IMG/VR virus record: IMGVR_UViG_3300029908_000007
Location: 1 to 64,000 of that record
Strand: one strand, 5' to 3'
Length of the DNA: 64,000 nucleotides
DNA from: a virus
Shown here: positions 25,676 through 58,448 of the stretch, one piece after another
Layout: each line of letters opens with the position of its first letter
Position numbering within the stretch: position 1 is the stretch's first letter
Position numbers and translations under genes: made by a program
Notes under the pieces: model-generated
Told to the model about the DNA's origin: nothing
The model's database searches: none
What the model saw: the letters and a program-made list of their open reading frames with translations, nothing else

Positions 25676-27061
25676 TTAGCTGAGCTGGCCAGTAATATTG
25701 TCGATTAACACGTTTTTTCTTGGCTGGTAAGCTGCCAATGACAGAAACCTAAAATGCGCCTCGGGGAGGCTGAGGTCGCTCACAGCAAGTTTAAGTTTGC
25801 TATAAGGAGCAAGCTGAGCGATACCGAGTGTATTGCCCTGGATCAGGAATCCCGTCACAGAACCTGGCTGTTTGTTGCCCAAGTCGGTGAATACAGGGTT
25901 GCCCGAACTCTGCTTGATCTTACCAATGAACTTGGCTTGTGCAGCGGTTCCGCCAACACCTGAGCGATATACGTTGTAGTATGAAGCTCCGGATACAGCG
26001 GTAATCGTCACAGTCACTTTGTCCCCAGCAGCGGTAACCGTTGCCGTTTGTGGAGCGCCTGGAAGAGATTCGCCCAAGATCGACACGCCCGTCGCGTAGT
26101 ACACATAGGTACCGGCTTGGAGCAATGACCCAGCAGCACCGGCATCAGCAACAGTAATTGCTGGAGCCGAAGGCGTGCCTTGGCGTGAACGAGCAGGCTG
26201 CGTTTTTCCAGAGAGGAAGCGTGAAGCTTCGAGGGAAACAACAGCGCTAGAAGTCCACTGCGTGCGAAGGTGAGCGCCAGTAGCTTCCTGGGCAGACCCA
26301 GCGAGCATAATGCGTTCTTTGGCATGCGCGATTTTGTTATAAGCACTCAGAGAGATCGGATCAAGGATTAAGCGATCAGCAGCGCCCATGTTCATGGCCG
26401 AGCGAACCGAAGAATCTTCGATGATTGACTGAGTCAGTGTTCCGCCCGAAGACAGTACAACCGTTTGGTTGGATCCGAATTCAGCGAACATCAAGTCTTG
26501 CGTGTTAGCTTGCCCATCAGACTGGCGAACCTGTTGGTCGACACCGATCATATTAGGAAGCTGAGCAACAACCGTTGGATTGCCGTCGAAAACACCGGCG
26601 TTCGAGAAATCAGCTTGTCCACGGAACAAGTCGAATTCGATATCGCCAGCGAGTTTCATCGCAGCATCGGCAGAAGAGCGGTCTTCAGCCTTAACGCCGT
26701 CGAAGGCGCCAATCATGTTTGCAGCAACGGTCACACGACGGATCGTGCTGTAGTATGCCATAGGCACAACAGCGCGAATGAAGTTCGACACGTCTTCTTC
26801 GCCGACGCCGCCTTCAAATTGAGCGGATCCACCGAAGATACCGTAGTCTAGCTGACGGTTGAATTGATGAAGTTGCGATTTAACTTCCTTGGAAGGAAGG
26901 ATTTTCTGCAATTTGATGTGGGAATCGTCGAACGTGACGTTTTGCATCACAGGCGACAAATCTTCCATCATAAGGGCGGCGCCCTGTTCCAGGTTCTGTG
27001 GGGAGGCCATGTAACTGCCCGCTTCGAGAGCCTTCATTAGTGACTGAAGTTGTTCGATCAT
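25676..27061 (-). CDS. Major capsid protein (SPO1/K/A511-like) with an Ig/FN3-like insertion
   Basis: MKALEAG...GAALMMEDLS N-terminus; biased codon usage; follows the scaffold; strong terminator; GTYVYYATGV...YYNVYRS insertion. Confidence 0.88.
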   Translation of the reverse strand: MIEQLQSLMKALEAGSYMASPQNLEQGAALMMEDLSPVMQNVTFDDSHIKLQKILPSKEVKSQLHQFNRQLDYGIFGGSAQFEGGVGEEDVSNFIRAVVPMAYYSTIRRVTVAANMIGAFDGVKAEDRSSADAAMKLAGDIEFDLFRGQADFSNAGVFDGNPTVVAQLPNMIGVDQQVRQSDGQANTQDLMFAEFGSNQTVVLSSGGTLTQSIIEDSSVRSAMNMGAADRLILDPISLSAYNKIAHAKERIMLAGSAQEATGAHLRTQWTSSAVVSLEASRFLSGKTQPARSRQGTPSAPAITVADAGAAGSLLQAGTYVYYATGVSILGESLPGAPQTATVTAAGDKVTVTITAVSGASYYNVYRSGVGGTAAQAKFIGKIKQSSGNPVFTDLGNKQPGSVTGFLIQGNTLGIAQLAPYSKLKLAVSDLSLPEAHFRFLSLAAYQPRKNVLIDNITGQLS

Positions 27062-27090
27062 ATTTTCATTCTCCTTTAATTAAAGACACC

Positions 27091-27930
27091 TTATTTGAGC
27101 AGGTGGCTAATACTGTTAATGTTTACCTGCCCATTGAGGTAAAACGAATTGATTGCGTCTCTATCGGACTTCTCAAGCTTGGACGGATCCTTCGCCATAA
27201 GAATTTTGTGAATCTCGCTCTTAGTAGGAGTCTTCACTTCAACTGGCGTTTCGCTTTTGGCGATAACGTCAAGGGAAGTAATTGCCTTACCTTGAGGAAC
27301 GGTTTTCTTAGCAAGAGCCGTCAAGAATTCCTTAATCGCTGCCTTTTCAGCTTTTTCAGCTGCAAGTTCGTTTTTAAGAAGTTCGACTTCTGTGTTTTCT
27401 GATTTTTCCATCTGCTCTCCATCTGCTTTGCTGGCGGGCGATTTAGCGCCTGGGGTCTTAGAAGGAGCATCGGCAGACATTTCTCCGCCGCTTTTGTGTC
27501 CTTCAGTACCTAGGTCTTTTGCCTTTTCGTGTTTTTCCATCTCGGCTGGTTTGGCTTCAGTTTTACCCATACACTTTTGAAGACAGCTATGATGAGCGCT
27601 TTGCTCTGCCGGAGACATTGAGCGATACATTTTGTCCATGTGCGCCATGTCTTCTTCGTCATAGTCATGACCCTGTTCATGGCCTTCTTTGGCTTCATGT
27701 TCGGGTTTTTCTTCGTGATGCTCTTCTTTGCCTTCTTCCTTAGCTTCTGGCTTCTCGCCTTCAGCAGGAGCGGCTTCTTTGTGTTCGGGCTTCTCTTCAT
27801 GCTTGTCTTCAGCTGGCTTTTCGCCATCTTCGGACTTCGCAAGAGTTGACTTTTTATTAGCCAATTCAGCAGTAAATGCTAGTTCCACATCGGCTACGAG
27901 TTTTGCAACGGCTTCTGGTGTGTACTTCAT
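27091..27930 (-). CDS. Capsid scaffold-like protein
   Basis: Acidic, His-rich, low-complexity; directly upstream of the capsid gene; multiple KSE motifs. Confidence 0.7.
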   Translation of the reverse strand: MKYTPEAVAKLVADVELAFTAELANKKSTLAKSEDGEKPAEDKHEEKPEHKEAAPAEGEKPEAKEEGKEEHHEEKPEHEAKEGHEQGHDYDEEDMAHMDKMYRSMSPAEQSAHHSCLQKCMGKTEAKPAEMEKHEKAKDLGTEGHKSGGEMSADAPSKTPGAKSPASKADGEQMEKSENTEVELLKNELAAEKAEKAAIKEFLTALAKKTVPQGKAITSLDVIAKSETPVEVKTPTKSEIHKILMAKDPSKLEKSDRDAINSFYLNGQVNINSISHLLK

Positions 27931-27971
27931 ATTTACTCCTTTCATTATTATATTGGTTAAAAAGTCTATAA

Positions 27972-28442: not shown

Positions 28443-28642
28443 AATAAATCTCCTTTAAAAAAGTTAGCCCACATGGGGGCATAAATACGCGTATCTACAG
28501 TTAAACATTGTTCTTAATATAGAAAACACTGCAATTTCAATAAGTTAATTAAAATAAAAAGCTTGACTTCTTTAATAGTTATGATATAACTTACATAGAA
28601 CGGTAATCTTTAATTAGGATTACCAGAAAATAGGAGCTATGT

Positions 28643-33161: not shown

Positions 33162-34016
33162 ATGGCAGATTTCTCAGCCTCAAGGACATTTCAAACCGCG
33201 CAATACCCCGTACACGCATCCCAAACTTCTGGATTGCTTAAGCGCGTAGAACCATTTCTAACTCCCGAACTTTTTATAAACAGATTTCTTTTGGGAGTCC
33301 CTCTTAAATTTGCAAACGGACAGTCATTTACCGATGAGATTATAAAAGATCGTATCATGCTCGCAATGAACGAATCAGAAGCGCAAATCGGAACCACAAT
33401 CACAAGAGAAGAGTTTAAGGATAAACTAGGATTTGACGCCAATTTATACCGCAGCTTTATACATTTAAAGCCACGGCATTCTCCAATTATAAGCATTGAA
33501 AGTTTAGCTATTGTTGCGAGCAATGACGAAGTTATTTTTGTTGTACCTAGTATGTGGATAGAGCTATCTTCTTTATCAATGGGTTACATTAACGTCGTCC
33601 CACTTTTAGCTGCTTTTGGAAGTTTTTCTGTCACCGGTTCACCAATCACAGCAACGAATCAGGGGGCGGGCGTTGCTTTCCTGGCCCTGTGGGGACAAAA
33701 TGGCTCATCGCAACACGTCCCAGGATATTGGCAACTTAATTACAGTGCAGGTCTTTCAAATCGCGAAGGACACGTTCCGACTATCGTCAATCAACTCATC
33801 GGAACAAATGCGGCCATCAACATTCTCAGCCAAATAGCACAATCTTTTACAACTACTTCTCAAACATTGAGTCAAGATGGAATTTCACAAAGCAGTTCGG
33901 GTTTGGGTCCTCGCACCTACGCACTTCGCCTCGAAGAACTCACAAAGAACAGGGATGAACTTATAAAGAAAATCAAGGGAATCTTCGCTAAATCCTATGT
34001 AATCGGAGAATACTAA
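33162..34016 (+). CDS. Head-tail adaptor/neck protein
   Basis: AMNESEAQIG...PIISIESL...LNYSAG...SQDGISQS pattern of myophage adaptors. Confidence 0.6.
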   Translation: MADFSASRTFQTAQYPVHASQTSGLLKRVEPFLTPELFINRFLLGVPLKFANGQSFTDEIIKDRIMLAMNESEAQIGTTITREEFKDKLGFDANLYRSFIHLKPRHSPIISIESLAIVASNDEVIFVVPSMWIELSSLSMGYINVVPLLAAFGSFSVTGSPITATNQGAGVAFLALWGQNGSSQHVPGYWQLNYSAGLSNREGHVPTIVNQLIGTNAAINILSQIAQSFTTTSQTLSQDGISQSSSGLGPRTYALRLEELTKNRDELIKKIKGIFAKSYVIGEY

Positions 34017-35243
34017 ATGTCCTTGCTTAAGCATCTCCGCAAAGCTCTTACCGAAGAGTACTCGCTGAAGAAAGCTGAGGATCCCGTTGCCTACGCTAAG
34101 ACCGCTTCCACTGGTTTCATTCTTGCTCACCCTGTAAAGATCAACGGCGAAAGTCACAGAAAAGATAATGGTATCGATTACCATTCCACTGTAAAATTCT
34201 TCGATAAAGAAAAAGACAACCACGACGACGCCCACAAAACCGCTTCCCAATTAGACCTCACCCCACCCGATCCCAAAGAAACCCATATCGGCACCAATGT
34301 GATTAAAGATCGCATGGGTAACGACGTATACGCGATAACTTTGCATGGCAAGCACGCCGACAAGCTCAAAGAGAATCATAAAAAGTTCGATCACATGGGT
34401 CACAAAGAAAACTATGACTGGAACGCCCACATCAGTGTGCCTAAAGCCGTACACGATGAAATCAAAGCCAGCGGCCATAAGACCGCGCATGAAGCCGGAA
34501 TTGAATTCGGGCCAGCACAGCTGAAGCGTGGCAAAGAAGTTATTCATACTTATAAATTAAAAGAGCCGATGAAAAAGTCCGAAGGCGACGCTCCCTCAAC
34601 CGTCAAGCCTCCTGTCAAAATCAATCCCGAACACGGTAAGGCCATAGCAGATGCCTACGAGGGTATGAAACACGAGCCCAATAGCCCACACGTCAAAGCC
34701 GCCTACGATGCTTTGACCAACGAGACCGGCAAACAATTCAAAGACATCATGGGATCCGGACTTAAGATCTCGCAAATCAAACCCGGTCAAGCCAATCCCT
34801 ACAAAAGTTCCAAAGAAATGCATAACGACATCAAGAATAACAAACATCTGTGGTACTTCCCAACCGAACAGGGCTTTGGTAGTGGTGGGCAAGCTTCGGA
34901 CCACCCAATGTTGGGCCCCAGCGGTTTCAAACACGACGGCAAGTCTTTGGTACACAACGACATCTTTAGAATCGTTCACGACATCAACGGCCATCACGCC
35001 GGTGGAGAAACCGGATTTGGGCCAACCGGGGAGCACCAAGCCTATCTCACCCATAAGAAAATGTATAGCCCTCTAGCGGGAAAAGCATTGGCTACAGAAA
35101 CTATGGGACAAAATAATTGGGTGAATTTTGGTCCTCACGGAGAAAACAATAGAAAAAATCCAGCCCAGACAAAGTTTGCGGATCAAAAAGCGGGATTGTT
35201 ACCAGAACACATTACCAATGGAGACTGGCACAATGCATCATAA
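34017..35243 (+). CDS. Two-domain protein: Acb1-like 2H phosphodiesterase plus HDxxGH (zincin-like) domain
   Basis: YHSTV (H56) and AHISV (H138) 2H motifs; after MKKSE, NDIFRIVHDINGH...GEHQAY...TETMGQN. Confidence 0.7.
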   Translation: MSLLKHLRKALTEEYSLKKAEDPVAYAKTASTGFILAHPVKINGESHRKDNGIDYHSTVKFFDKEKDNHDDAHKTASQLDLTPPDPKETHIGTNVIKDRMGNDVYAITLHGKHADKLKENHKKFDHMGHKENYDWNAHISVPKAVHDEIKASGHKTAHEAGIEFGPAQLKRGKEVIHTYKLKEPMKKSEGDAPSTVKPPVKINPEHGKAIADAYEGMKHEPNSPHVKAAYDALTNETGKQFKDIMGSGLKISQIKPGQANPYKSSKEMHNDIKNNKHLWYFPTEQGFGSGGQASDHPMLGPSGFKHDGKSLVHNDIFRIVHDINGHHAGGETGFGPTGEHQAYLTHKKMYSPLAGKALATETMGQNNWVNFGPHGENNRKNPAQTKFADQKAGLLPEHITNGDWHNAS

Positions 35244-36426
35244 TCAGTGGAAGAAAGAATTTGAAGATTCCGTGGAACCATCTTTACGTAAAGCCGAAGA
35301 TCTCCATCTAGTCCACTATTCCCCCCAAGCCGGTCTCAAATACATCGACCCAAAGTTCAGCGGAACCGGCGTCGACAGCAGAACCAAAGGCCGCAGCACC
35401 GAACACCCACACTCCTTCTATTATAGGCATGGAACCGAACCCGAAGAAGTGGTAACCGGTAGAGCTGCTAACAAATACCACGTTAAAATCGGCGCCGACA
35501 AACCCATTTACGATATTGGTAAAGATCCTAAGGGCTTGGTCAGACAAGCCATCGAGGAAAATCAAGGTATTACTAATATGGATACCGTACACTCCAAAAT
35601 CAAAGAACACGGCTTCCATGGATTCCATAATAGCGGGCACCCCAGTCTTTCCAATGTAGTGGCTATGTATCACCCGCAGCCGGTTCAGAACGACAGCATG
35701 CAGAAATCCGAAATCCAACCCCTTCTAAAACCCTGGTCCAGCCAAGCTCAAGCCGCATGGGGTCATTCACCTGAAGGTAAAGCCGCGCTTGGTGGAGAAG
35801 CCGCTGTGAAGGAATGGGATAACGCTACCAAAGGCAAGCATCTGCCAAAGCATGTTAAAAAGAACGAATCCCTCGAAAAAGGCGCACTCAAAAATCTCCT
35901 AACCGCTGGAACCATGGGCGCTGCTTTGGCCTCCGCTGTTCCCTCAGAAGCCCACGCGCCCAATCACGAACCCCTACATCCCCAAGCCGGTGCTCACCCA
36001 ACTACGGGCTACGATCGAAAAAAGATGTTAGACGCTATTTCACAAGTTGAGAGTAGCGGCGGAAAAAATACCGTGCACAAGCCAACCTCCATGGGCCGAG
36101 CATATGGCCGATTTGCCGAAATGCCCGACATGATCCACGACACTATTCGCCTCAACCCCGATCTGAAACGCCAGCATCAAAAAGCCCTAAATCTTCAGGG
36201 TGACGATCTCCACCGTTACATGCAGGACAACCCAAAGTTAGAAGAGCAGATCGCCGATAAACATCTTTCCAGACTCGAACACCATTTCGGCCAGAATCCC
36301 AGCCTAATAGCGTTTTCTTGGAACCAAGGTGTCACAGGTACGAATCGCGCCTTAAATCAAAAACACGACATTTCCTCGCACCCATATGTGCAGAAATTTA
36401 AACACGCCTACGAAGGCAAGGAGTAA
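35233..36426 (+). CDS. Multidomain protein: ART-like domain, small PWSSQAQ module and lytic transglycosylase (SLT/lysozyme-like)
   Basis: GGAG RBS before ATG 35233; LVHYS...SFYY...GFHG; ISQVESSGG...AYG...SWNQG. Confidence 0.65.
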   Translation: MHHNQWKKEFEDSVEPSLRKAEDLHLVHYSPQAGLKYIDPKFSGTGVDSRTKGRSTEHPHSFYYRHGTEPEEVVTGRAANKYHVKIGADKPIYDIGKDPKGLVRQAIEENQGITNMDTVHSKIKEHGFHGFHNSGHPSLSNVVAMYHPQPVQNDSMQKSEIQPLLKPWSSQAQAAWGHSPEGKAALGGEAAVKEWDNATKGKHLPKHVKKNESLEKGALKNLLTAGTMGAALASAVPSEAHAPNHEPLHPQAGAHPTTGYDRKKMLDAISQVESSGGKNTVHKPTSMGRAYGRFAEMPDMIHDTIRLNPDLKRQHQKALNLQGDDLHRYMQDNPKLEEQIADKHLSRLEHHFGQNPSLIAFSWNQGVTGTNRALNQKHDISSHPYVQKFKHAYEGKE

Positions 36427-36428
36427 TT

Positions 36429-36920
36429 ATGTCAATGAATATTCGCCCCGAAGATATTGATACCATTGAAGACGCAGGTATTTTAGATGGACAACCGGTT
36501 AAACTCATCAGAACCCGTGGTGGATTTTGGATGAGCATTATCAACGGCAAAGTCGTTGCAGGCGGATCTCACCCAGCGATCGTTAAGCACAGTGTGTCTA
36601 AGATGTTCCCTAACTTCCAAGCCGCTCTCTGCAAAAGTGAAAACGCTGGCATGGACGCCATCGTTGACAAACACTCACACTTCTTATCTGACGATCTGCG
36701 TAAAAGTGGTCACGACATCTACAGTATCCAAGAAAACGACGCCATCGAATTCCAAGTCACCAAGCACAACATCAAAGTTGCTGGTATTAACGGTTCCATG
36801 GTTGAGGGCTCCCTATCTTTGGAAGCCATCGACTTCCCCGAAGAGTTCAAAAAATCTCTAGCTGCGGCTACAACCGAAAAAGCTCTCTCTGTTAAAGCTA
36901 AAACCATCCGGATCAAATAA
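36429..36920 (+). CDS. Hypothetical head-associated protein
   Basis: AAGGAG RBS; LCKSE motif splits it into two halves. Confidence 0.65.
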   Translation: MSMNIRPEDIDTIEDAGILDGQPVKLIRTRGGFWMSIINGKVVAGGSHPAIVKHSVSKMFPNFQAALCKSENAGMDAIVDKHSHFLSDDLRKSGHDIYSIQENDAIEFQVTKHNIKVAGINGSMVEGSLSLEAIDFPEEFKKSLAAATTEKALSVKAKTIRIK

Positions 36921-36921: not shown

Positions 36922-37269
36922 ATGTGCGTAGAACTTGTTAAGAGTGAAACCCAAGTCAGTTTTAAACCCGAACTTCCTCTAGAAGAGCAAATCTGTGGAT
37001 GCCAGGAAGCTATTATTGACTGCGAACCCGATTGCCCGAAGGTACTGAAGTTCTTGGCCGAAGTCGAAAAGGCCTGCCAATATGGGAAATCGTTGGGAAT
37101 CAAACTTAGCCTAGTTGATACACACAACTTCGGATTGTTTAAAAAAGTTAAGGATTTAAACCAAGCCATCGCTACTTCTGATATAATACATCAGATAGTT
37201 TTGTTTCACGACAAAGCCGATCGTAGACTAGAAGAGATTGCTAACATGTGTAGGAAACCGAATGAATAA
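36922..37269 (+). CDS. Hypothetical protein
   Basis: Operon packing. Confidence 0.6.
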   Translation: MCVELVKSETQVSFKPELPLEEQICGCQEAIIDCEPDCPKVLKFLAEVEKACQYGKSLGIKLSLVDTHNFGLFKKVKDLNQAIATSDIIHQIVLFHDKADRRLEEIANMCRKPNE

Positions 37270-38811: not shown

Positions 38812-39738
38812 ATGAAACCGAACGCCGAGTACTTTCTCAGAAAGACACTTGGAGAAGACCTTAAAGAGTCGTTAGGCGAAGTCCTATCTAAGTCCGAAGT
38901 CTATAAGCAAGGTACTCGTACTATTACCGATACCGACGATCTTTTTCAAGGTCTTCAAATCGTTCCACGAGCACTACTAAGTCTTTTGGTTAGAGAGTTG
39001 TCTCCCATGCAAATCGGAGAAAATAAAGAAATTCGCATTCCAGGAAAAGAAGACACCACGGTTCAGGTTACCAAGCATGAGCGTGATTCCTATAGTGGTC
39101 AAATAATTCAAAACAACGTTAAAATCAACGACTTTATGCACCGCTCATTACCGGGTTTAGGTTTGGTTTTGATGACAATGCTAGAACTATACGACTTCGA
39201 AGATCTCAAAGAAACTCCTTCCGCCGACCACTCCCATATCAACAAGCTCATCGACGAACGCATGCATCTTCACTCCCTCATCAACCAAGTCGTAGATGGC
39301 AAGCTCATGCACCGCGACGCCGTTGAACAGCTTCTCATGACCAAGCTAAATCAGATGGGCACCGAACATAAAGAGATTAAAGAAGAACACAAAGAAATCA
39401 TGAAGCCCGAAGAACCTAAGGCAACAGTGGTTATTAACATCGAAACCGCTAAAAAACGTCGTCCGTTATCGGAATTCGTGGAAAATCGTAAAAAGAAACT
39501 TGCCAAGAAAGAGCATTTTATAGAAATGAAAAAATCCGAAGAAATTTCATGCCCGGATTGCGGGAACGTTATTTTTTCTGAGGGTGCTTACAGCGGCTGT
39601 ATTTGTTTTGGTGATAGCGATAAAAAGCTTTATGTTAAAAAATCTGAAAACGGCTATATGGTGCGCCCTGGTCGTGGGTGGGATGAAGAGAATCTGGAAA
39701 TGCTTTTGGAAGCTTTGAGGGGTAATAAAAATGGGTAG
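38812..39738 (+). CDS. Hypothetical protein with C-terminal zinc finger
   Basis: CPDC...CIC; LSKSE, MKKSE, VKKSE motifs. Confidence 0.7.
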   Translation: MKPNAEYFLRKTLGEDLKESLGEVLSKSEVYKQGTRTITDTDDLFQGLQIVPRALLSLLVRELSPMQIGENKEIRIPGKEDTTVQVTKHERDSYSGQIIQNNVKINDFMHRSLPGLGLVLMTMLELYDFEDLKETPSADHSHINKLIDERMHLHSLINQVVDGKLMHRDAVEQLLMTKLNQMGTEHKEIKEEHKEIMKPEEPKATVVINIETAKKRRPLSEFVENRKKKLAKKEHFIEMKKSEEISCPDCGNVIFSEGAYSGCICFGDSDKKLYVKKSENGYMVRPGRGWDEENLEMLLEALRGNKNG

Positions 39739-44229: not shown

Positions 44230-44501
44230 TGAAACTACCCAAAACCCCCAAACTCGGTGCTACTTTGGGCTCGACTCTGGGTACAACTTTAGGTACGCCC
44301 GCCGCTAGTGCTCCTAAAGACATAACCAAAATTGGTAAGCAAGGTGTGGCTGCGAAAATGCCAAAGCCAAAAGCGCCACGCGATGCATTTGCGCCGCCAA
44401 GCGTGTTTTTTGGGAAAAGTGAAGATAAGCCAAAACATCTAAGTGTCTGTAAATTAAAGGATTTTATTGAACATAAAATGAAAAAACGGGCTCAAAAATG
44501 A
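44229..44501 (+). CDS. Small basic low-complexity protein
   Basis: TLG repeats; FGKSE motif. Confidence 0.6.
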   Translation: MKLPKTPKLGATLGSTLGTTLGTPAASAPKDITKIGKQGVAAKMPKPKAPRDAFAPPSVFFGKSEDKPKHLSVCKLKDFIEHKMKKRAQK

Positions 44502-44537
44502 TTAGGGAATCAATCTTTATGTGTATAAGGGGCAACT

Positions 44538-45224
44538 ATGGCCGAAAACAATAAAACAGTTTCAGCACGCGATGCAATTCTAGCCGTTCTCGCCAAGGCC
44601 AAACAAGTCCTTGAAACTTCCGATCTTGTTAAATCCGAATACAAGACTGAAAATTCCCCTAAGCCCGGCGTTAAGTATGGCAAAATTGAAACCGCTCAAA
44701 AAGCGACCGAACGCGATTATAAAGAATATGAAGTGAAATCAGGTGGTTCCAAGGATTCTACCGGCCCTCGTGTTGCTAAGCAAATTTCTCCAAGTGGTAA
44801 TCCAAAAGAAGAAGCTGAAGGCAACAATAAGCCCGATGGCATGGAACCCCACTACGAGTTTAAAGACAAGGTTGCCGGAGAATTGGCTAAAGAAAAGAAA
44901 GCTTTAGGCAAGGCTGAAAATCCAGATAAAGAGCAAGACGCTGCGCTTGGTGAAAAAGTCGAGAACGACGTCGAAGAACATTTTAAAGAAAATGCAGGCG
45001 CTGAACGACAAGAAGGACATTCTATGGCTAATCCTGAAGATAAGACCGACAAAGCAACAACGATTCCAAGGCTGATTTTGTCGGCTAAACTATCGAAATT
45101 TATGGAATTTCGCCACGCAAAGAAAAAAGCTCAAGAATCCGCCGCCGCCGTAGGATCTCCAGCCGCTTCTGCTCCAGCCCCAAGATCGACCCAGGATAGT
45201 CAACCGGACACAAAGAAGATATAA
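44538..45224 (+). CDS. Charged low-complexity (internal head-like) protein
   Basis: LVKSE, LGKAE motifs; AATCTTTA upstream. Confidence 0.65.
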   Translation: MAENNKTVSARDAILAVLAKAKQVLETSDLVKSEYKTENSPKPGVKYGKIETAQKATERDYKEYEVKSGGSKDSTGPRVAKQISPSGNPKEEAEGNNKPDGMEPHYEFKDKVAGELAKEKKALGKAENPDKEQDAALGEKVENDVEEHFKENAGAERQEGHSMANPEDKTDKATTIPRLILSAKLSKFMEFRHAKKKAQESAAAVGSPAASAPAPRSTQDSQPDTKKI

Positions 45225-45226: not shown

Positions 45227-45823
45227 ATGAAAACCTGTTCGAAGTGCGAAATCACAAAAGACCTTGAATGTTTTGGGAAAGCTCCCCAAAACAAAGACGG
45301 TCTTAATGGGCAATGCAAAGAGTGTAGAGCCGCTTATTTACTAGATTATAATGAAAAAAACAAAGAAAAGGTTATGGCGGGTCAAAGAAGATATTATAAA
45401 GAAAACAGGGTAGAGATTATAGAAGAAAAAAAGATCTATCGTGCTTTGAATTTAGAAACTATCAAACCCAAAACCAATGCTAGACTCAGGGCTAGAAGAA
45501 AAAATGATCCTCAATTTAAATTGGCAGCTAATTTAAGAGGACGTCTTAATATGGCTATTAAAAGAGGGTACAAGGCAGGTTCGGCGGTAGATGATTTGGG
45601 ATGTTCTGTAGAATCTTTTAAATCTTATATAGAAGGTCTACTCCAGCCGGGCATGACATGGGCTAACTATAGCCCAAGAGGATGGCATTTGGATCATAAA
45701 GTCCCCTTGGCTAGCTTTGATTTAACAGATAGAGAACAGTTTTTGAAGGCTTGTCATTACACCAATTTACAGCCTTTGTGGGCCGTAGACAATATTAAGA
45801 AAGGTGACAAAATTTATGGCTAA
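45227..45823 (+). CDS. HNH homing endonuclease
   Basis: CSKC...CKEC; GMTWANY..WHLDHKVP...HYTNLQPLWAVDN. Confidence 0.9.
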   Translation: MKTCSKCEITKDLECFGKAPQNKDGLNGQCKECRAAYLLDYNEKNKEKVMAGQRRYYKENRVEIIEEKKIYRALNLETIKPKTNARLRARRKNDPQFKLAANLRGRLNMAIKRGYKAGSAVDDLGCSVESFKSYIEGLLQPGMTWANYSPRGWHLDHKVPLASFDLTDREQFLKACHYTNLQPLWAVDNIKKGDKIYG

Positions 45824-48875: not shown

Positions 48876-50210
48876 ATGAATAGAACTTGGACTTTAGAAA
48901 AATTACAGAACGAAGCTATAAAATACACAAAAAGATCTGCTTTCCAAAAGGGAAGTAAGACGGCCTACAATACGGCTCAGCGCAAAAACCTACTGGACAT
49001 TATCTGTAAGCACATGGAAGCCTTTAACATCAATGGCGACAGAAATCCTAATTTTAAATGGTCCCTGGATATTTTAAAACAAGAAGCTCTGAAGTACAAT
49101 TCAAAAAGCGAATTTAAAGATAAAAATCCAAAAGCTTACCACGCAGCTTGGTACAGCGATGTGCTAGATGAAATCTGCTCCCATATGAAAAACCTTCTCC
49201 ATTATTGGACGGACGAAGAATTGGCCAAAGAAGCTTTAAAACATAAAAGCAGAACCAAATTTGAAGAAAAAAGCGGAAGTGCCTATCTAACCGCTTGTAG
49301 ACGAGGTCTTATAGATGAAATCTGCGTACATGCTCCAAAAAATGAGAAGAAAAGCTATGTACAAAAAGAAATATTTGATTTCATTAACTCTTTTTATCCT
49401 GATACCGTATACGATACTAGAAAAGTAATATCTCCGTTGGAACTAGATATTTACATACCATCATTGAAGCTAGCCATTGAATATTGTGGCCTATATTGGC
49501 ACTCAGAAGAATATAAAGAAAATAGCTACCATTATGATAAAATGAAATTTTGCAATGAAAAAGGTATAAGACTGATTACAATATTTGAAGATGAATGGCT
49601 AAAAAGGCAGGATCAAGTAAAGAACCTTCTTAAGTCGGTTATCAATAAAAATGAGTTCAAAATAATGGGAAGGAAAACTAAAATTAAAGAAGTGCCCAAA
49701 AAAGAAGCTAAAGAATTCTTAGAACAAAATCATATTCAAGGGTCTTCTGTATTTGAAATATCGTTTGGTTTGTATTATTTTAACGAACTACAAGCAGTAA
49801 TTACCGGCAACAAACATCATAGACAAGGCCATTCCGACACGCTAGTTTTAAATAGATTGGCTTTTAAGACCGATGTGTCTATTGCTGGAGGCCCTTCTAA
49901 ACTTTTCAATCGTTTAGTGAGCTATGCGAAAGAAAGGGGATACAAGAGGTTAATTTCCTGGTCCGACAATAGGTGGTCTGAAGGAAATGTTTACAAAAAG
50001 TTAGAATTTGAATTAACTGAAAATTTACCTGCCGACTATTCTTATTTTAGCAATCAGTCTAGAATATCCAAACAATCTTGTCAGAAAAAGATGTTAATTA
50101 AAAAAGGTGCTAAAGGAGATATGTCTATGACCGAAAAAGAATTGGCTTTAAGTCTAGGTCTATATAGAATTTATGACTGCGGTAAGAAACAGTGGTCCAT
50201 TAATTTATAG
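48876..50210 (+). CDS. Hef-like homing endonuclease with N-terminal helical repeats
   Basis: WT.E.L..EA.KY repeats; ELDIYIP...IEYCGLYWH; C-terminal half closely similar to 24173..25570. Confidence 0.82.
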   Translation: MNRTWTLEKLQNEAIKYTKRSAFQKGSKTAYNTAQRKNLLDIICKHMEAFNINGDRNPNFKWSLDILKQEALKYNSKSEFKDKNPKAYHAAWYSDVLDEICSHMKNLLHYWTDEELAKEALKHKSRTKFEEKSGSAYLTACRRGLIDEICVHAPKNEKKSYVQKEIFDFINSFYPDTVYDTRKVISPLELDIYIPSLKLAIEYCGLYWHSEEYKENSYHYDKMKFCNEKGIRLITIFEDEWLKRQDQVKNLLKSVINKNEFKIMGRKTKIKEVPKKEAKEFLEQNHIQGSSVFEISFGLYYFNELQAVITGNKHHRQGHSDTLVLNRLAFKTDVSIAGGPSKLFNRLVSYAKERGYKRLISWSDNRWSEGNVYKKLEFELTENLPADYSYFSNQSRISKQSCQKKMLIKKGAKGDMSMTEKELALSLGLYRIYDCGKKQWSINL

Positions 50211-50276: not shown

Positions 50277-52130
50277 ATGGCGACAGAAACTCCTAAAACC
50301 GGCCCAACATATATCCATGGTGTTGGATCTAGCACTGCAATTGATACTGCCGGAGAAATTGTGGATTTGGCCGGTATCGACTGTTCTGCACTTCTGCAAG
50401 GCCCATTTTCCTGGGAACATCAAAATACTCAACCAAATCAACTAGTTGGAAAAATATTAGAATACAAAAAGATCTTTTCTGAAGCTGATTGCGAAAACGA
50501 ACATCACAAACGCTTTTGGGAAAAATGCCAAAATCCGTTCCTTTATGTAATGGGACGTCTTTTTGATGATAAAAAGGACTCTTCAAAAGAAGTCGCTGCC
50601 TTATTCATAGACGATGCGGAACATCCTGATGAGCCCCCAATGGTTGGATTCAGCATCGAGGGCAGCAAAGTCGACAAAAAGGGTATTATAGTGACAAAAT
50701 CTATTGCTCGCAAAGTAACCGTGACAAATGCTCCCGCCAATAAACAGTGCGTCGCCGAACTCATTCCCGGCCCTGAAGTCAAACAAAAATCCGAAGACTC
50801 CATCTTTAAATCCGAATTCACCCATACCATCGATCTTGTAAAAACCGAACTTAAAAAAGACGGCAACATGCCCGCTCCTGCGGCCTCACCAAAACCTGAT
50901 CTGGGTTGGACCGCTAATCCTACCCCTTTTGGTAATCCTATGAGCAATCTAATGTCAGGACTTGGAATGGGTAAAAAAGAAATGAAAAAATCCCAGGTTC
51001 CTGGTAGCAAATATCCGCCGAAGTCTGATGTTAAGCCTGGAACTCCTCCCCAAGAAAAAGTTGGAGGCATTCCTAAGTTTGGACCCATTGCTAAACCAAC
51101 ACCCAAACCTTTAGAAAAAGCCCGTGTTGATGAAGGCAAGACTCCGGAACGAAAAGCTTGGGATAGATCTGCTAGAAATGATAGAACTGGCACCACAACT
51201 ACAACTTGGATTAAACGTCCTAGTGCGGTTGGAGAATTGCTGGGTGCAAAACCTAAAAAAGAAACTCAAACCAATACTCGTTCCCATGCAGCCGCCGGTA
51301 ACATCGATATGAGAATCGGAACTGCCGCAACCCCAGGACATGCGCCCAGAACATCGTCTACACATGGCGGTGGGACCGTTACGTCGAGTAGAAAAGTAAT
51401 AGGTACACCTGCTAAATCAATGCAAAAAGCAATGACCGCTGGATCCGGTATGGCTGGACCCGGTACCCTTAGTGGTGGTGCCGCGCTTAGTAAGGAAAGT
51501 CTTGACAAGAAGATGAAAAAGGCCGAACTTTTGAAACGCGCCAAAGAAGCCTACCAGACCTGGGAAAAGAGAGAAGCTTTTGAGAATTTTATGGCAAAAA
51601 GTATGCCAGAACTTACGAAGCATGAAATTATTGCTATTGGTCAAACGATTGCTTTGTCTAAGTCCTTAAAAGCTGAAGCCAAATTAGCCAAGATGCTAAC
51701 TTCTAAAGAAGCTATTGATGAGAACGAAATCGGGACCAAGTTCGACAAGAACATGGCAGGCGACAATATCAGTTCTTATGTTTCGCCTGCAACTGGCAAT
51801 CTAGGTGCTTCTGAAGATTTTAAGAAAGCTGAAAAGAAAGCCCCTGGTGAATATGGTAATGTTGAGCCACATACTAGCCATAAAGGTATGATGGGTTTAG
51901 GTTTCGACTTTCACATGAAACAGAGTGGGATCCATAAGGAACACGCCGAAAAAGCCCATACTAGCGGAAATAAAGATTTGGGCCAGAAGCACCGTGAAAT
52001 GGCCGAAATGCATCGCATGTATACTCACGCTCTTCCTCATGAAAAAGATGAGCCGGGTCGTGATTATTCTTCCGCTGAAAAAAGCGCTAAAAAATTAAGG
52101 ATTGCCTTAACAAAATCTGAATCTGAATAG
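50277..52130 (+). CDS. Prohead protease with a long C-terminal extension
   Basis: SSTAIDTAGE, WEH (His), GFSIEG (Ser), PAN; the extension contains many K[SA] motifs. Confidence 0.85.
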   Translation: MATETPKTGPTYIHGVGSSTAIDTAGEIVDLAGIDCSALLQGPFSWEHQNTQPNQLVGKILEYKKIFSEADCENEHHKRFWEKCQNPFLYVMGRLFDDKKDSSKEVAALFIDDAEHPDEPPMVGFSIEGSKVDKKGIIVTKSIARKVTVTNAPANKQCVAELIPGPEVKQKSEDSIFKSEFTHTIDLVKTELKKDGNMPAPAASPKPDLGWTANPTPFGNPMSNLMSGLGMGKKEMKKSQVPGSKYPPKSDVKPGTPPQEKVGGIPKFGPIAKPTPKPLEKARVDEGKTPERKAWDRSARNDRTGTTTTTWIKRPSAVGELLGAKPKKETQTNTRSHAAAGNIDMRIGTAATPGHAPRTSSTHGGGTVTSSRKVIGTPAKSMQKAMTAGSGMAGPGTLSGGAALSKESLDKKMKKAELLKRAKEAYQTWEKREAFENFMAKSMPELTKHEIIAIGQTIALSKSLKAEAKLAKMLTSKEAIDENEIGTKFDKNMAGDNISSYVSPATGNLGASEDFKKAEKKAPGEYGNVEPHTSHKGMMGLGFDFHMKQSGIHKEHAEKAHTSGNKDLGQKHREMAEMHRMYTHALPHEKDEPGRDYSSAEKSAKKLRIALTKSESE

Positions 52131-54891: not shown

Positions 54892-55530
54892 TCAATCCTT
54901 CTTAACGACTCCATCCACATTGAGAATATTAGAAATGTCTGAAGCCGCTTTTGATTCTTCTTGAGCCCACTTTGCGAAGACGTCGCCGACGATTTTTTCC
55001 TGCATACTGAGAGCTTTCTTGGCGGGTTCCGGCAGGTTGGCCTGGAGTCGTGGGGTGAAGTTAAGAGCAGCCTTAGGGGCTTTACCCATTTTGGTGTTCT
55101 TGATGGCGTCCATGGATTTGGTAAGGTTGATCTGAATTTGAAGTGATTTAATATCTGAAAGCGTCTTCTTGAGATCGCCGAGTTCCATGGAAGTGATTTC
55201 GGATTTGCCAAGCATCCCCTCAAGTTTGGAAATGTGTTGATCGAGTTCGTCGCCATTGGGGTTCTGAGAAACGGGTTGACCCGGCTGTTCCGGGGCTCCG
55301 GCTTCTTCGCCAGGTGCGGCTTCTTCGCCGGGTTGGCCGGGTTGGCCGGGCTGTTGGCCGCCCGCTGCGGCTTGTGCCATAGCGTTGGCATCTTGAACCT
55401 GTTGTGCGGCTTGATCGAGTTGAGATTGCTGGAGACCGGCTTCCACTCCCAACCTGAAAGCCAGGTCAACGGTGCTCTGAAACTTTGTCTTAAGATCTTT
55501 GTATTTTGCTTTGTAGTCGGTTAATGACAT
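54892..55530 (-). CDS. Hypothetical head-associated protein
   Basis: Gln/Pro-rich linker; LGKSE, LTKSM motifs; portal operon. Confidence 0.7.
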   Translation of the reverse strand: MSLTDYKAKYKDLKTKFQSTVDLAFRLGVEAGLQQSQLDQAAQQVQDANAMAQAAAGGQQPGQPGQPGEEAAPGEEAGAPEQPGQPVSQNPNGDELDQHISKLEGMLGKSEITSMELGDLKKTLSDIKSLQIQINLTKSMDAIKNTKMGKAPKAALNFTPRLQANLPEPAKKALSMQEKIVGDVFAKWAQEESKAASDISNILNVDGVVKKD

Positions 55531-55531
55531 A

Positions 55532-56587
55532 TTAGGCTACCTCTTTGAGTGAAACTTCTAAAAATTTAAGGCATTGGTCGACACATGCTTGTCGATCTAG
55601 ATCCCAATCGGTTTCTTTGATATGAAGAATTTCTATCCCTTTATTAGCAAACCAGAAATCCTTGATTTTCTGATAGTTGATCAGATCTTCGTCAGGCCAA
55701 TTAGGCCTACCTCTTTTAAGTCCTTCAAAGCTATGATGATATCTTCCATCAAATTCAATACCTTTACGAAGTTCTGGAATATAGATGTCTAACTCAAAAC
55801 CGTGAATATGAGGTTTTCCTTCTATTTTAACTTTTCGATCCCAAAATTTCTGAGCCTTTGGGTAAAGAGCTTTTATTACATTAAAAAGGTCTATTTCAGC
55901 CAATGAAGAGCCAGTATAGTTACTGTTTGGGAAAACTATTTTATCTAAGAGCTTCCTTTTCCATGCAACCCTGTACAGGTTAGGATTTTCCTTAAGAAAT
56001 TCACCCTGACTCCTATATTTAGAACCCTCTTTTATAACGTAAGAATTGGTATAAAGCGCAAGAGGATGGTTTTCTCCTATAGAATCTGTCATATGACCAC
56101 AAAGATCCTCTAATAGTCCTCTTCTATAGATAGCCATATAAGAATCAAAATCGTGTTCCCTAAAAAGAGATATTTTATCATAAAGAAGGGCTATTTTCTT
56201 TAACTTTTTGTGCGTGTGCTTTTTATTGGAATGCTCGTCTCCCGCCGGATTTGCCTCAACAACATGATCTGTAATTTTGTTAAAAATGCCTCTATTGTGA
56301 GCAAGCACATACTCACTAGGGTATTTTTTTCTGAATTCTTTTTTTGTTTTACAACTTCTGGCTTTTTTCTCAATAGCTGCGTCAGTATGCCTAAATTTAG
56401 GATGATTTTCTCCAAACAAAGTTCCGCTGATCATATGAGAACAAGCTTCTTTAAGAATTCGTCTTTTGTGACATAAAGTGTAAGCACTTCTATCCCCCTT
56501 AGAAAAAGCTCCAGGTGTTTCAAAGGATAGCGCTCTTTTAAACAATTCTTCATTAGAAACTGGTTTGTTGCTTTTCCTTTTCTTCAT
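55532..56587 (-). CDS. PD-(D/E)xK/Vsr-like homing endonuclease with helical repeats
   Basis: GENHP repeats; FELDIYIPELRKGIEFDGRYHH; nuclease domain similar to that of 32153..33160. Confidence 0.8.
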   Translation of the reverse strand: MKKRKSNKPVSNEELFKRALSFETPGAFSKGDRSAYTLCHKRRILKEACSHMISGTLFGENHPKFRHTDAAIEKKARSCKTKKEFRKKYPSEYVLAHNRGIFNKITDHVVEANPAGDEHSNKKHTHKKLKKIALLYDKISLFREHDFDSYMAIYRRGLLEDLCGHMTDSIGENHPLALYTNSYVIKEGSKYRSQGEFLKENPNLYRVAWKRKLLDKIVFPNSNYTGSSLAEIDLFNVIKALYPKAQKFWDRKVKIEGKPHIHGFELDIYIPELRKGIEFDGRYHHSFEGLKRGRPNWPDEDLINYQKIKDFWFANKGIEILHIKETDWDLDRQACVDQCLKFLEVSLKEVA

Positions 56588-56588
56588 T

Positions 56589-58448
56589 TTAGGCGCCTTC
56601 TTCCTCATCAAGAAGCATATCTTCTATTTCCATGGAAAGCAAATCTTTTATTAGTTCGGGTGGTCTAGGAGCATATAAGGCCTTGATAGCGTTAGGATTT
56701 GCTTGCATTAAAAGTTGAAAATTTTGAAGCCAGAAGGCATCACGTTTGAATTTAAGTAAAGGATCAAAAATTGCGCCAGGGTCTCCAAAGAACCTAGTTC
56801 TGACTTCGCCGACGTTCGAATAAAAATCGAGTACCTGTCTATAACGCTCATTAAACGGAACCGCTCCGCCCATTGCCTTACCAACCGGATCTAGATCAAC
56901 TTCTCTTTGTAGCGTATCGTAGTCGTAGAAAAGTGCGGAGTCCTGTTGAAGACGTGCGGCTTCCTGCTCCTTTGATTCGGAATCGAGGCCGGAAAGTTTT
57001 ATTTCTACGATTTGTGCGAGTTCGGCGTCGATGATTGGAAGCAGTCGTTGATTTAAAAATACCTGCCAGCCTAAGATCAAAGGGCGCAAGCCGGAATCAC
57101 GAGCGGCGGTCATTTTAAATTCGTTATTACTTTCGCTGAGAGTTTGAGAATTTGTTCCCTTAGACAGATGTCCATACCCAGGAATTTCATCAGGCGACAC
57201 ACCGAATGCCGCCAAAATATTTCTGGCTATTTGATCGTAAGTATAAGAGAATTCGGAATCGCCAAGTTTGTCCGCCGTACCAATCCACGCGACGTCATCT
57301 TCTTTCGCGATCCCAAAGATCGGGGTTCTAAAAGCGTTGGAGACAGAATTGATAGATGCGTTGAATTGCATTTTAATTGCATCAAGCATCTGTTGATCAA
57401 CCTCGTCGCTCTTGATAACTAACATCCCTTTGGCTGATTTACCGTTACTGAAATATGTTTTCCAGTAGGCTTCGATAGAAATATGCGTGGTGATGCAATT
57501 CATACAGGTATCTAGTGGTGAAACCGGATAGCCGTTGTGCTCGATGTCGGTGCTTGGGAAGAGATTGTAGACAAGCATTTCATTCGACGTAAACGCCTGT
57601 CGTGGCTGCATTTCAATAACTTGTAGCCAGGTATACTCGTCTTCCTTGAGTTTTTGCATGTCGATGTTAAACGACGCGCCTTCCATTTGCTCCAATGCTT
57701 TTAGCGCAAGTTCTCTTAGATTATTTCCAACGCTTTCGCCTTTACGAACGGCACGAAAAATTGTAGCAATATCTACGGGACGAAATCTATGAAAAGGATA
57801 ATTACCGTCTTTGTCGGGATCCTTAGATCTGTCGTAGATAATTTCAGTGCCATGCGATCCAAAAGCAAGTCCGTTTTGAGTTTGAATGCTCAAGTAATCC
57901 GATAACACCATTTGGTCTTGGTGTTCCAAACCCTCGGTGTGTCCGCAATTAAGCAAAATCTTTTCCAGACGTTTGATTCTTTCCACGACTTTTGTGTACT
58001 GCTCAGGAGTCAATAGTTTTAAAAACTCCGGTCTGATATCAACTTCAACACCAACGTCGAAACGGTCCTTTTTGAGGTGACCGTAGAGTTTCATGATGTT
58101 GCCGCGAGTTCTTAGAATGGCGGCGACAAGATGGTCGGTGACACGGATGGCCTTGATGAGTTCGGGAGGAAGCAGACGGGTACGGGCTTTGAACAAGCCT
58201 AAAAAATTTGATTGCGGTGCTGGGAGTTCGGAAAATGCAAGAGAGGGAGCTTTTTTCTTAGCAGCGGTTCCAGACAGAACTCTAATAGCTTCTGATAATG
58301 GTTTGGTTTCGCCCTTGCGTAGATCAGTTCCTGGAACTGCCAAAGCTTCTAACGCTTTGGCCAAAGACGTTAGGCTATGCTCTTGGCTTCCTTCTTCAGG
58401 ACTATCACCAAAGGTAATGCTGACGGTTTTTTTATCTTTGACGTCCAT
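56589..58448 (-). CDS. Portal protein
   Basis: GYPVSPL, YFSNG..AKGML, AAFGVSPDEI, GLRPL motifs. Confidence 0.9.
   Translation of the reverse strand: MDVKDKKTVSITFGDSPEEGSQEHSLTSLAKALEALAVPGTDLRKGETKPLSEAIRVLSGTAAKKKAPSLAFSELPAPQSNFLGLFKARTRLLPPELIKAIRVTDHLVAAILRTRGNIMKLYGHLKKDRFDVGVEVDIRPEFLKLLTPEQYTKVVERIKRLEKILLNCGHTEGLEHQDQMVLSDYLSIQTQNGLAFGSHGTEIIYDRSKDPDKDGNYPFHRFRPVDIATIFRAVRKGESVGNNLRELALKALEQMEGASFNIDMQKLKEDEYTWLQVIEMQPRQAFTSNEMLVYNLFPSTDIEHNGYPVSPLDTCMNCITTHISIEAYWKTYFSNGKSAKGMLVIKSDEVDQQMLDAIKMQFNASINSVSNAFRTPIFGIAKEDDVAWIGTADKLGDSEFSYTYDQIARNILAAFGVSPDEIPGYGHLSKGTNSQTLSESNNEFKMTAARDSGLRPLILGWQVFLNQRLLPIIDAELAQIVEIKLSGLDSESKEQEAARLQQDSALFYDYDTLQREVDLDPVGKAMGGAVPFNERYRQVLDFYSNVGEVRTRFFGDPGAIFDPLLKFKRDAFWLQNFQLLMQANPNAIKALYAPRPPELIKDLLSMEIEDMLLDEEEGA

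Follow-up and report, generated by a model that had tools for sequence, protein, structure and literature searches.

A five-residue peptide motif, [LMFIV]-x-K-[SA]-E, recurs in proteins of the head-gene region of a large Mx1-like phage (IMG/VR virus record IMGVR_UViG_3300029908_000007, 162,308 bp), of which the first 64 kb, hereafter the window, were analyzed. Judging from the sequence comparisons and the predicted fold of the enzyme, this motif is likely to be the recognition site of the phage's own head-maturation serine protease, encoded at 50277-52130, which would cut after the lysine. With the same degree of confidence, we read the code from the sequences as demanding a hydrophobic residue at P3 and Lys at P1, with P2 left free; past the cut, P1' would be Ser or Ala, and Gly in fewer cases, and Glu would be favoured at P2'. 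The predicted substrates are the capsid protein, the scaffold, the C-terminal tail of the protease, the portal and about seven other late proteins. That cutting occurs, that the 50277 protease performs it, and that the additional substrates are packaged or ejected are points that we infer. The sequence-only reading of this DNA had proposed a prohead-protease cleavage code, and this proposal is supported, within the limits of sequence analysis and structure prediction, by motif enrichment, conservation, alignment with the capsid of Listeria phage A511 and the fold of the protease. The genes concerned are as follows; gene starts were taken as those of the longest open reading frames, and a downward arrow marks a predicted or annotated cut.

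25676-27061, minus strand: major capsid protein of the SPO1 gp6.1 / A511 Cps type (PHROG 752, PDB 9vel)
27091-27945, minus strand: Lys/Glu-rich, scaffold-like protein, so placed from its position directly upstream of the capsid gene
34017-35243, plus strand: modular protein in which a leader precedes a 2H phosphoesterase and a 'hub' module (AF2, that is AlphaFold2, model and structural matches)
35128-36426, plus strand: motif carrier with a weak SLT-like C-terminal domain (Pfam SLT match, sub-threshold)
36429-36920, plus strand: conserved 163-residue protein (orthologues)
36922-37269, plus strand: 115-residue protein with the 7-residue leader MCVELVK↓SE
38812-39738, plus strand: conserved 308-residue protein with a Cys-rich C-terminal domain
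44229-45224, plus strand: two small variable proteins, at 44229-44501 and 44538-45224
50277-52130, plus strand: predicted head-maturation protease (PHROG 1028, match to SPO1 gp3.2, predicted fold)
54892-55530, minus strand: 212-residue Gln/Pro/Gly-rich protein near the portal gene
56589-58448, minus strand: portal protein (PHROG portal families)

Enrichment of the motif in the head-gene block

Ten proteins encoded from 27,091 to 55,530 together contain 20 copies of the strict motif, against 2.1-2.3 ± 1.5 in shuffles that preserve the composition of each protein and do not keep helical periodicity (z = 11.7, about 12), an enrichment of approximately ten-fold over chance. No strict site is present in the window outside this 27.1-55.5 kb block, and the remaining genome (~42,000 residues) contains 7 against 6.2 expected, which is background. 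Every instance listed by the sequence-only reading was found in the gene to which it had been assigned, and the test of enrichment in the head block that it had proposed gave a clear difference, with 20 sites against about 2 in the block and 7 against 6.2 elsewhere. The motif is indeed absent from the tail proteins, where that reading had noticed none, but little weight attaches to this, given how few lysines the tail-fibre and baseplate proteins contain (0.7-3% Lys); the remaining genome serves as the informative control. The description of the carriers as a protein family did not hold: they are unrelated proteins that have only the site in common.

Dissection of the motif shows which positions matter. 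The tripeptide KSE alone is found 20 times against 4.3 expected, while its permutations (ESK, SEK, KES and others) occur at expectation. There is no enrichment when P3 is non-hydrophobic (8 against 8.2 expected), when P1' is a residue other than Ser, Ala or Gly (15 against 13.0) or when Arg replaces Lys (0 against 1.0); Gly is accepted at P1' (7 against 1.8). Glu at P2' is preferred and not required, with relaxed forms, defined as those without Glu at +2, numbering 45 against 26.6 expected. Instances of the latter are LMKAL in the capsid and LAKAL in the portal, as well as MQKAM, LEKAR, LEKSD, LTKSM and LEKGA; individual relaxed instances are less certain, since their enrichment is smaller. 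The codons for Lys, Ser, Ala and Glu at the sites vary synonymously, with both Ser boxes (TCN and AGY) in use, and the matching DNA words number 27 in the coding frame against 5, 1 and 3 in the two other frames and the antisense strand. The constraint acts on the peptide and not on the DNA.

Two simpler origins were considered and rejected. A DNA-level motif such as a promoter or repeat is ruled out by the synonymous codons and the in-frame-only enrichment of the DNA words, and an artefact of composition is ruled out by the shuffles and the near-miss patterns. The sites themselves lie at the following positions.

27026-27040, minus strand: capsid site LMKAL
27829-27843 LAKSE, 27397-27411 MEKSE, 27250-27264 IAKSE and 27163-27177 LEKSD, minus strand: scaffold sites
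34035-34049 LRKAL, 34065-34079 LKKAE and 34569-34583 MKKSE, plus strand: sites of the 34017 protein
35284-35298 LRKAE and 35698-35712 MQKSE, plus strand: sites of the 35128 protein
36627-36641 LCKSE, plus strand: mid-protein site of the 36429 protein
36934-36948 LVKSE, plus strand: site of the 36922 protein
38884-38898 LSKSE, 39526-39540 MKKSE and 39634-39648 VKKSE, plus strand: sites of the 38812 protein
44409-44423 FGKSE, 44625-44639 LVKSE and 44904-44918 LGKAE, plus strand: sites of the 44229 and 44538 proteins
50802-50816 IFKSE, 51513-51527 MKKAE, 51819-51833 FKKAE and 52107-52121 LTKSE, plus strand: strict sites of the protease
51111-51125 LEKAR and 51420-51434 MQKAM, plus strand: relaxed sites of the protease
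55198-55212 LGKSE and 55111-55125 LTKSM, minus strand: sites of the 54892 protein
58350-58364 LAKAL, minus strand: candidate N-terminal propeptide site of the portal, ahead of its conserved core

The capsid site and the predicted cut after lysine

The capsid protein of the window matches PHROG 752 (E 1e-41) and SPO1 Gp6.1 (PDB 9vel, E 7e-20), with further tblastn matches to the capsids of Herelleviridae; it is ~53% identical to the capsid of Myxococcus phage Mx1 and ~27% identical to those of the SPO1, A511 and K type. Its N-terminus reads M-I-E-Q-L-Q-S-L-M-K-A-L-E-A-G, in which the element L-x-K-A-L-E-A/V-G is near-invariant among the capsids recovered from related loci; the equivalent stretch is LRKAMEAG in Mx1 and LNKALEAG (residues 21-28) in SPO1 gp6.1. 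In the RefSeq record of A511 the mature Cps is annotated from residue 24, EDALK↓SFTTGYG (K23↓S24), an annotation that reportedly derives from N-terminal sequencing by Loessner and Scherer (1995). A five-way alignment places the sites in one column (A511 ALK↓SF, K VVK↓SF, SPO1 LNK↓AL, Mx1 LRK↓AM, window LMK↓AL), and the capsid maturation cut of the window phage is predicted at K10↓A11. As the K23↓S24 bond of A511 aligns exactly with K10↓A11, the cut is probably after Lys, which supports the earlier proposal that the Lys-Ser bond is the one processed.

The scaffolds of these distant relatives point the same way. A scan of the portal, protease, scaffold and capsid proteins of SPO1, A511 and K found 11 Phi-x-K-S sites (Phi, hydrophobic) in the SPO1 scaffold gp3.3 and 7 in the scaffold-like protein of phage K, against 0.7 expected in each, and in both proteins the residue that follows the Ser varies. 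A511 gp85 contains 2 against 0.8 expected, which is not significant, and the scaffold pattern is therefore not universal in Herelleviridae. The constant part of the signal straddles the Lys-Ser/Ala bond, and the cut is therefore most likely to follow the Lys, in a site that would consist of a hydrophobic P3, a free P2, Lys at P1 and a small residue at P1'.

The predicted head-maturation protease and its C-terminal extension

The 50277 gene encodes a protein with a catalytic domain at residues ~1-165 (encoded at 50277-50780) followed by a C-terminal extension of 450 residues. The domain hits PHROG 1028, 'head maturation protease', over residues 89-161 (E 1e-9), and BLAST aligns residues 13-158 with SPO1 gp3.2 (28% identity, E 5e-7). 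Pfam returned no family at E <= 1 for six members of the protease family, and a profile search of PDB sequences gave no match. An AF2 model of the domain built from 33 sequences has a predicted local distance difference test (pLDDT) score of 91.4. The top ~30 Foldseek matches to it are all herpesvirus proteases (probability 0.9-1.0, TM 0.4-0.49), while the top VIA-align match is T4 gp21 (5jbl; Z 9.5 over 120 residues, root mean square deviation 3.9), followed by the proteases of varicella-zoster virus (9.3), human cytomegalovirus (7.3) and Kaposi's sarcoma-associated herpesvirus (6.0) and then by unrelated MCE domains below 5.7. The domain is thus predicted to have the T4 gp21/herpesvirus-assemblin fold, in keeping with the identification of this gene as the protease by the sequence-only reading. 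H48 (in W-E-H) and S126 (in F-S-I-E-G-S) are invariant in the 33 sequences and are candidate catalytic residues.

A word-indexed homologue search returned 10 close relatives of the protease and a single-sequence locus search one locus, while an exhaustive profile search returned 1469 cluster representatives; among the 150 best listed of these the domain is nearly always N-terminal, in proteins of 165-1444 residues. In 148 diverse representatives the strict sites are distributed very unevenly, with 1 against 7.8 expected in the catalytic domain and 231 against 23 in the C-terminal extension. This distribution suggests an enzyme that leaves its own fold intact and cleaves its own tail.

The extension of the window protease also contains, at 51414-51524 (plus strand), a 37-residue copy of the capsid N-terminus, 46% identical to capsid residues 6-42 over 37 residues (E 4e-8) and including the K↓A site as SMQK↓AMTAGS. 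The element K-[AS]-[LMIV]-[ETQD]-[AST]-G is present in the extension of 51 of the 148 diverse family members, and the proteases of SPO1, A511 and K each mimic the site of their own capsid just after the catalytic domain. Such mimicry may be how the protease docks where the N-terminal arms of the capsid protein dock.

Scaffold and portal sites

The scaffold gene lies directly upstream of the capsid gene, as it does in SPO1, A511, K and Mx1. Across 52 unique orthologues the scaffold carries a mean of 8.7 core sites, and Glu is present in 73% of the scaffold sites; when the window scaffold is aligned with its orthologues from whole relatives and Mx1, sites are conserved at 5-6 positions. When all scaffold lysines are taken without conditioning on the motif, Leu is over-represented at -2 (3.2-fold), Ser at +1 (2.3-fold) and Glu at +2 (2.2-fold). 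The portal carries a core site ~30-50 residues in, at an equivalent N-terminal position, in five of six phages, the sites being LAKAL, FSKSE, LEKAG, IMKSS and, in Mx1, LAKSE.

At scaffold positions 27500-27560 (minus strand), the window has S-M-S-P-A-E-Q where four relatives have S-M-S-K-[AS]-E, so that a site has been lost by a Lys-to-Pro change.

Other late proteins that carry the motif

Strict sites beyond those of the scaffold and protease are found in the proteins encoded at 34017, 35128, 36429, 36922, 38812, 44229, 44538 and 54892; the carriers of the window are small (90-430 residues). In several of them the first site is located 7-32 residues from the N-terminus, giving leaders of 7 residues (36922), 9 and 19 residues (34017), ~20 residues (35128 protein, from a start at 35233), 27 residues (38812) and 32 residues (44538). 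The true start of the 35128 protein is probably 35218 or 35233. Its Pfam SLT match scores 20.4 bits, just under the cut-off of 21.3, and SLT (PF01464) is recorded as a partner domain in three members of the hub family described below (P0178, P0182 and P0204).

The mid-protein site of the 36429 protein is kept in three of three orthologues at 30-46% identity (LCKSE / MMKSE / LQKSE / LCKSE), and the LGKSE site of the 54892 protein is kept in four of four, with Ser, Ala or Gly after the Lys (LGKSE / LSKSE / VQKAE / VQKGE). The sites LSKSE, MKKSE and VKKSE of the 38812 protein are conserved in two, three and none of four orthologues, respectively. No full-length orthologues of the 44229 and 44538 proteins were found in the five genomes compared.

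Sites at the module borders of the 34017 protein and its homologues

In the AF2 model of the 34017 protein, for which 49 sequences were used, confidence is low over just two long segments, residues 7-24 and 181-191, and these hold the sites K9↓A, K19↓A and K187↓S; both strict sites thus lie in predicted disordered linkers. Residues 31-182 (34107-34562, plus strand) have 20 structural matches, all of which are 2H enzymes (Z 9.0-5.8; next entry 3.9), among them the rotavirus VP3 phosphodiesterase (Z 9.0), YjcG (8.6), a Burkholderia phage phosphodiesterase (6.9), the poxvirus cyclic GMP-AMP (cGAMP) phosphodiesterase (6.8) and the phage anti-CBASS nuclease Acb1 (6.5). The stretch between the predicted cuts K19↓A and K187↓S amounts to an entire 2H phosphoesterase domain, and its modelled fold makes it a candidate for the breakdown of cyclic-nucleotide or 2'-5' signals.

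The remainder of the protein, residues ~195-408 (34599-35240, plus strand; pLDDT ~96), forms the hub module, which has invariant His and Asp residues. It matched no Pfam family, PDB entry or Foldseek target, and its neighbours in the ESM Atlas are unnamed viral proteins; VIA-align similarity to minigluzincin zymogens is at noise level (Z 2.2-2.5), and the module has no HExxH motif. At least 119 proteins contain the hub, with partner domains that are exchanged among them. In the homologues listed, of 224-710 residues, it is 55-80% identical and occurs either by itself after a short leader or joined, at its N- or C-terminal side, to SLT, GNAT, NUDIX, ParB-like or other domains. Core sites cluster at its borders: they are present within 30 residues upstream of the hub in 36 of the 58 proteins with upstream sequence (12% of random windows), and between -3 and +15 of the hub end in 17 of the 22 with downstream sequence (5% of random windows). 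A similar leader of 10-11 residues, M-Y-K-K-[V/I/L]-[L/I]-K-x-L-[K/R]-K↓[S/A]-E, starts 27 of 120 family members; in 15 of these the hub comes next, in the other 12 unrelated sequence. The claim that the motif falls at domain junctions is supported by the 34017 model and by the module borders in these homologous proteins, and receives no support from the hydrophobicity proxy discussed below.

Mx1 encodes a 1479-residue polyvalent protein, annotated as a NUDIX hydrolase, in which GNAT (156-271), ART-PolyVal (649-896, E 2.8e-16) and NUDIX (923-1033) domains are accompanied by sites at residues 131, 608 and 1253 and by ALKSE at 309, between domains. In the carriers of the window, Pfam detected no ART-PolyVal, zincin-like or other polyvalent signature domain.

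Conservation and independent genomes

Window proteins were aligned with their orthologues from four whole relatives and Mx1. A core site is present at the same position in 22 of 36 orthologue comparisons (61%), against 38 of 445 (8.5%) for other lysines of the same proteins, the alignments being approximate in the low-complexity scaffolds. In Mx1, 16 strict sites were counted, against 1.5 expected, in the block that begins with the portal and stops short of the tail sheath gene, whereas the first 8.6 kb have 1 against 0.5 and the 42-91 kb region 1 against 1.5. At 66 loci of uncultured IMG/VR relatives, with capsids 56-95% identical, 618 sites were counted against 83.5 expected.

Gene order and neighbouring genes

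A search of the phage collection at the nucleotide level gave no match to the window. The scaffold and capsid genes are adjacent (27945-25676, minus strand), and inserted late genes separate them by 22-30 kb from the protease (50277) and portal (58448); in Mx1 the order is portal ... protease ... scaffold-capsid, all within 12 kb. HNH / endonuclease VII-like genes are present at 45227-45823 (plus strand) and 55532-56611 (minus strand), positions at which most relatives have no counterpart. One of them precedes the sheath gene and the other abuts the 3' end of the portal gene; both are probably mobile homing endonucleases.

The late structural block also encodes, at 40441-42150 (plus strand), a 569-residue protein whose N-terminal domain is of the mCpol (minimal CRISPR polymerase) type (Pfam E 6e-16). 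This protein is kept in four of four relatives and has a weak counterpart in Mx1 (33963-35369, E 5e-4); the window copy has no strict site, and the Mx1 counterpart carries VQKSE and IPKAE. Two Lys-rich paralogues at 24173-25606 (minus strand) and 48876-50210 (plus strand) have Mom-like/GNAT C-terminal domains and no strict site in either, and match a single 539-residue protein of one relative, G004, with 48% and 60% identity.

Weighing the cleavage code against its alternatives

Several observations weigh against the interpretation of the motif as a Lys-directed cleavage site of the 50277 protease. Chance would account for about 2 of the 20 strict sites. Strict sites that are not conserved comprise VKKSE of the 38812 protein, LVKSE of the 36922 protein, which is absent from the sole alignable orthologue, and three sites of the protease tail; VKKSE, inside the Cys-rich domain, is probably fortuitous. 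At the conserved N-terminal site of the 38812 protein two orthologues (G001 101273-102205 and G002 20731-21618) have Phe after the Lys (LNKFE and LAKFE), so that either the site has been lost there or P1' tolerates more than Ser, Ala and Gly. A crude proxy for linker location, the hydrophobicity of the flanks, gave no difference (p 0.61). The assignment of the protease family draws on a weak PHROG match, a weak BLAST match and a predicted fold, and the position of the A511 cut is taken from the RefSeq mat_peptide annotation.

It is unlikely that the sites are cut by a different protease, whether a host enzyme or another phage peptidase such as the hub module. Embedded zincin-like peptidases have been proposed to process polyvalent proteins, and, like the zincin-like hub of that work, the hub module keeps recurring beside domains that are exchanged (Iyer et al. 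2017, PMC5512222); to this can be added its faint similarity to minigluzincin zymogens. However, those Z-scores are at noise level and HExxH is missing, SPO1, K and A511 use the same code with no hub among the annotated genes of the head regions compared, and the capsid site is a classical prohead-protease site. The depletion of sites in the assemblin-fold domain and their ten-fold enrichment in the tail moreover tie the code to that enzyme.

We regard as improbable a scheme in which the same protease acts on the same substrates but cuts after the Glu (K-S-E↓), in the register of T4 gp21 and of the phiKZ/SPN3US enzymes. T4 gp21, the closest solved phage structure, and the phiKZ-type enzymes do cut after Glu, and the frequency of Glu in the scaffold sites would fit such a register. 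Yet the capsid, portal and protease-mimic sites have Leu or Met two residues past the Lys, sites without Glu are still enriched, the annotated K↓S cut of A511 aligns with K↓A in the capsid, and the SPO1 and K scaffolds hold Phi-x-K-S constant while the next residue varies. A cut after Glu would also put the hydrophobic residue at P5 and Lys at P3, unlike any of the assemblin-fold motifs cited here.

We give equally little credence to the motif being a binding or targeting tag that stays uncleaved, for example in docking to the scaffold or portal. The portable N-terminal leader that ends in the motif precedes unrelated domains (27/120 proteins), as such a tag might, and in T4 the targeting and processing determinants of the leader are separable (PMC9026906). 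On the other hand, the homologous site of A511 Cps is annotated as cleaved, 8.7 sites per scaffold fit degradation and not docking, the sites are found at internal module borders as well as at N-termini, and their depletion in the catalytic domain would be hard to explain.

Finally, it is very improbable that the motif has no specific function and simply reflects the helical, Lys/Glu-rich composition of the carriers or their common descent: many carriers are rich in Lys and Glu and the shuffles lose helical periodicity, but permuted and near-miss patterns are not enriched, other Lys-rich proteins of the block carry no site, the flanks of the sites are unrelated, the sites lie in disordered linkers, their positions are conserved across phages at 30-50% identity and the remaining genome is at background.

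Comparison with known systems

In T4, the gp21 protease uses an [L/I]-x-E code, built like the one read here except for its P1, and a capsid-targeting sequence (CTS) marks the internal proteins IPI-III and the injected ADP-ribosyltransferase Alt; the targeting and processing determinants lie within a leader of 10 residues (PMC9026906). The system proposed here resembles that of T4 in its assemblin-fold protease, for which gp21 is the best structural match, in the presence of enzymes among the substrates, in having one short motif common to the capsid, the scaffold or core, the protease itself and extra proteins, and in N-terminal leaders of 7-10 residues that end in the site. It differs in that P1 is Glu in T4 and Lys (then Ser, Ala or Gly) here, in the sequence families involved and in its multi-domain proteins with sites at internal linkers; packaging and ejection, which are established for T4, are inferred here.

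The phiKZ gp175 and SPN3US gp245 proteases follow [S/A/G]-x-E or A-x-E codes and cleave many head and ejection proteins, at positions mapped by mass spectrometry (PMC10052503, PMC5694885, PMC7411985). There too one motif marks many head proteins, with several sites per propeptide, and predicts substrates; in contrast to the predicted cut after Lys, those enzymes cut after Glu, and the capsid lineage differs. The SPO1-like phages (Herelleviridae) share a homologous capsid and protease, the aligned cut site, the mimic of the capsid site in the protease and, in SPO1 and K, scaffolds filled with Phi-x-K-S, but their proteases are of ~260 residues and have no long extension, and the strong preference for Glu at P2' is seen only in the Mx1-like group.

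The maturation and release sites of herpesvirus assemblins have the form (V/L)-x-A↓S. They thus share with the code a hydrophobic P3, a free P2, a specific P1 and a small P1', and these enzymes share with the phage protease the fold (Foldseek probability up to 1.0) and the fusion to a C-terminal scaffold-like extension that contains cut sites; they differ in P1 (Ala, against Lys here), in their eukaryotic host and in the lack of sequence similarity. Herpesvirus assemblin is also named in the study of polyvalent proteins (PMC5512222), which predicts that these proteins are delivered with the DNA and attributes their processing mainly to zincin-like peptidases, with assemblin-like peptidases as only rare C-terminal domains and without a cleavage motif (Iyer et al. 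2017, PMC5512222). Shuffled multi-domain polypeptides are common to both systems (2H and hub in the 34017 protein; GNAT, ART-PolyVal and NUDIX in Mx1), whereas an assemblin-fold head protease with an explicit code is proposed here, and the carriers of the window are small.

It is established that a single protease motif can mark many head proteins, including injected ones, as in T4 and phiKZ/SPN3US, and the Lys↓Ser cut of the A511 capsid is annotated in RefSeq. A literature search (prohead protease, Herelleviridae, cleavage) found no description of the code beyond the A511 capsid, the original A511, SPO1 genome and phi812 papers lying outside that search, and found no Mx1 virion proteome paper. 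The features not found described are the Lys code with which the SPO1 and K scaffolds are filled, the form extended by Glu in the Mx1-like clade, the use of sites at module junctions and the portable leader. A cut after Lys resembles tryptic cleavage, and standard trypsin-based proteomics of virions could therefore miss it; this may be why the code was found undescribed beyond the A511 capsid in the SPO1, K and A511 phages.

A proposed course of head maturation and its implications

If the motif is the recognition site of the 50277 protease, maturation might proceed as follows. In the assembled prohead the protease would remove the first 10 residues of the capsid protein, chop the scaffold into short peptides able to leave the shell, trim its own C-terminal extension and remove an N-terminal piece of the portal. 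It would also cut the ~seven further late proteins at their short N-terminal leaders and at interdomain linkers, and modular enzyme carriers such as the 2H and hub protein would come apart into separate domains within the capsid, which might then enter the host together with the DNA. By analogy with T4, the short leaders may act like its capsid-targeting sequence. The sequence-only reading had gone further in taking the motif to identify internal, ejected cargo; the sites are found in substrates generally, including capsid, scaffold, protease and portal, and packaging and ejection are suggested by analogy with the internal proteins and Alt of T4.

As the motif is most likely the cut site of the maturation protease, it predicts which proteins are loaded into the capsid, including multi-domain proteins that carry enzymes. 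If the code is right, a five-residue pattern would turn the genomes of mostly uncultured phages into a testable list of capsid-internal proteins, some of which look like enzymes that disarm host defences as the DNA enters (cyclic-nucleotide or 2'-5' phosphodiesterase fold), and polyvalent proteins would gain a concrete processing mechanism in which modules are shuffled exactly at the cut sites. Mx1 can be cultivated on Myxococcus xanthus, and the predictions are thus directly testable.

More tentatively, the Lys↓Ser code and the ~10-residue leader could constitute a general capsid-loading system in a large, uncultured Mx1-like clade (1469 protease clusters), with domains placed behind the leader, or between sites beside the hub, being packed, cut free and injected; we consider this possible, with the balance somewhat against it. 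Were it true, these phages would pre-load swappable counter-defence enzymes, among them Acb1-like 2H phosphodiesterases, lytic transglycosylases, GNAT and NUDIX enzymes and ADP-ribosyltransferases, and the head protease, instead of embedded zincin peptidases, would be the mechanistic link for the class of polyvalent proteins.

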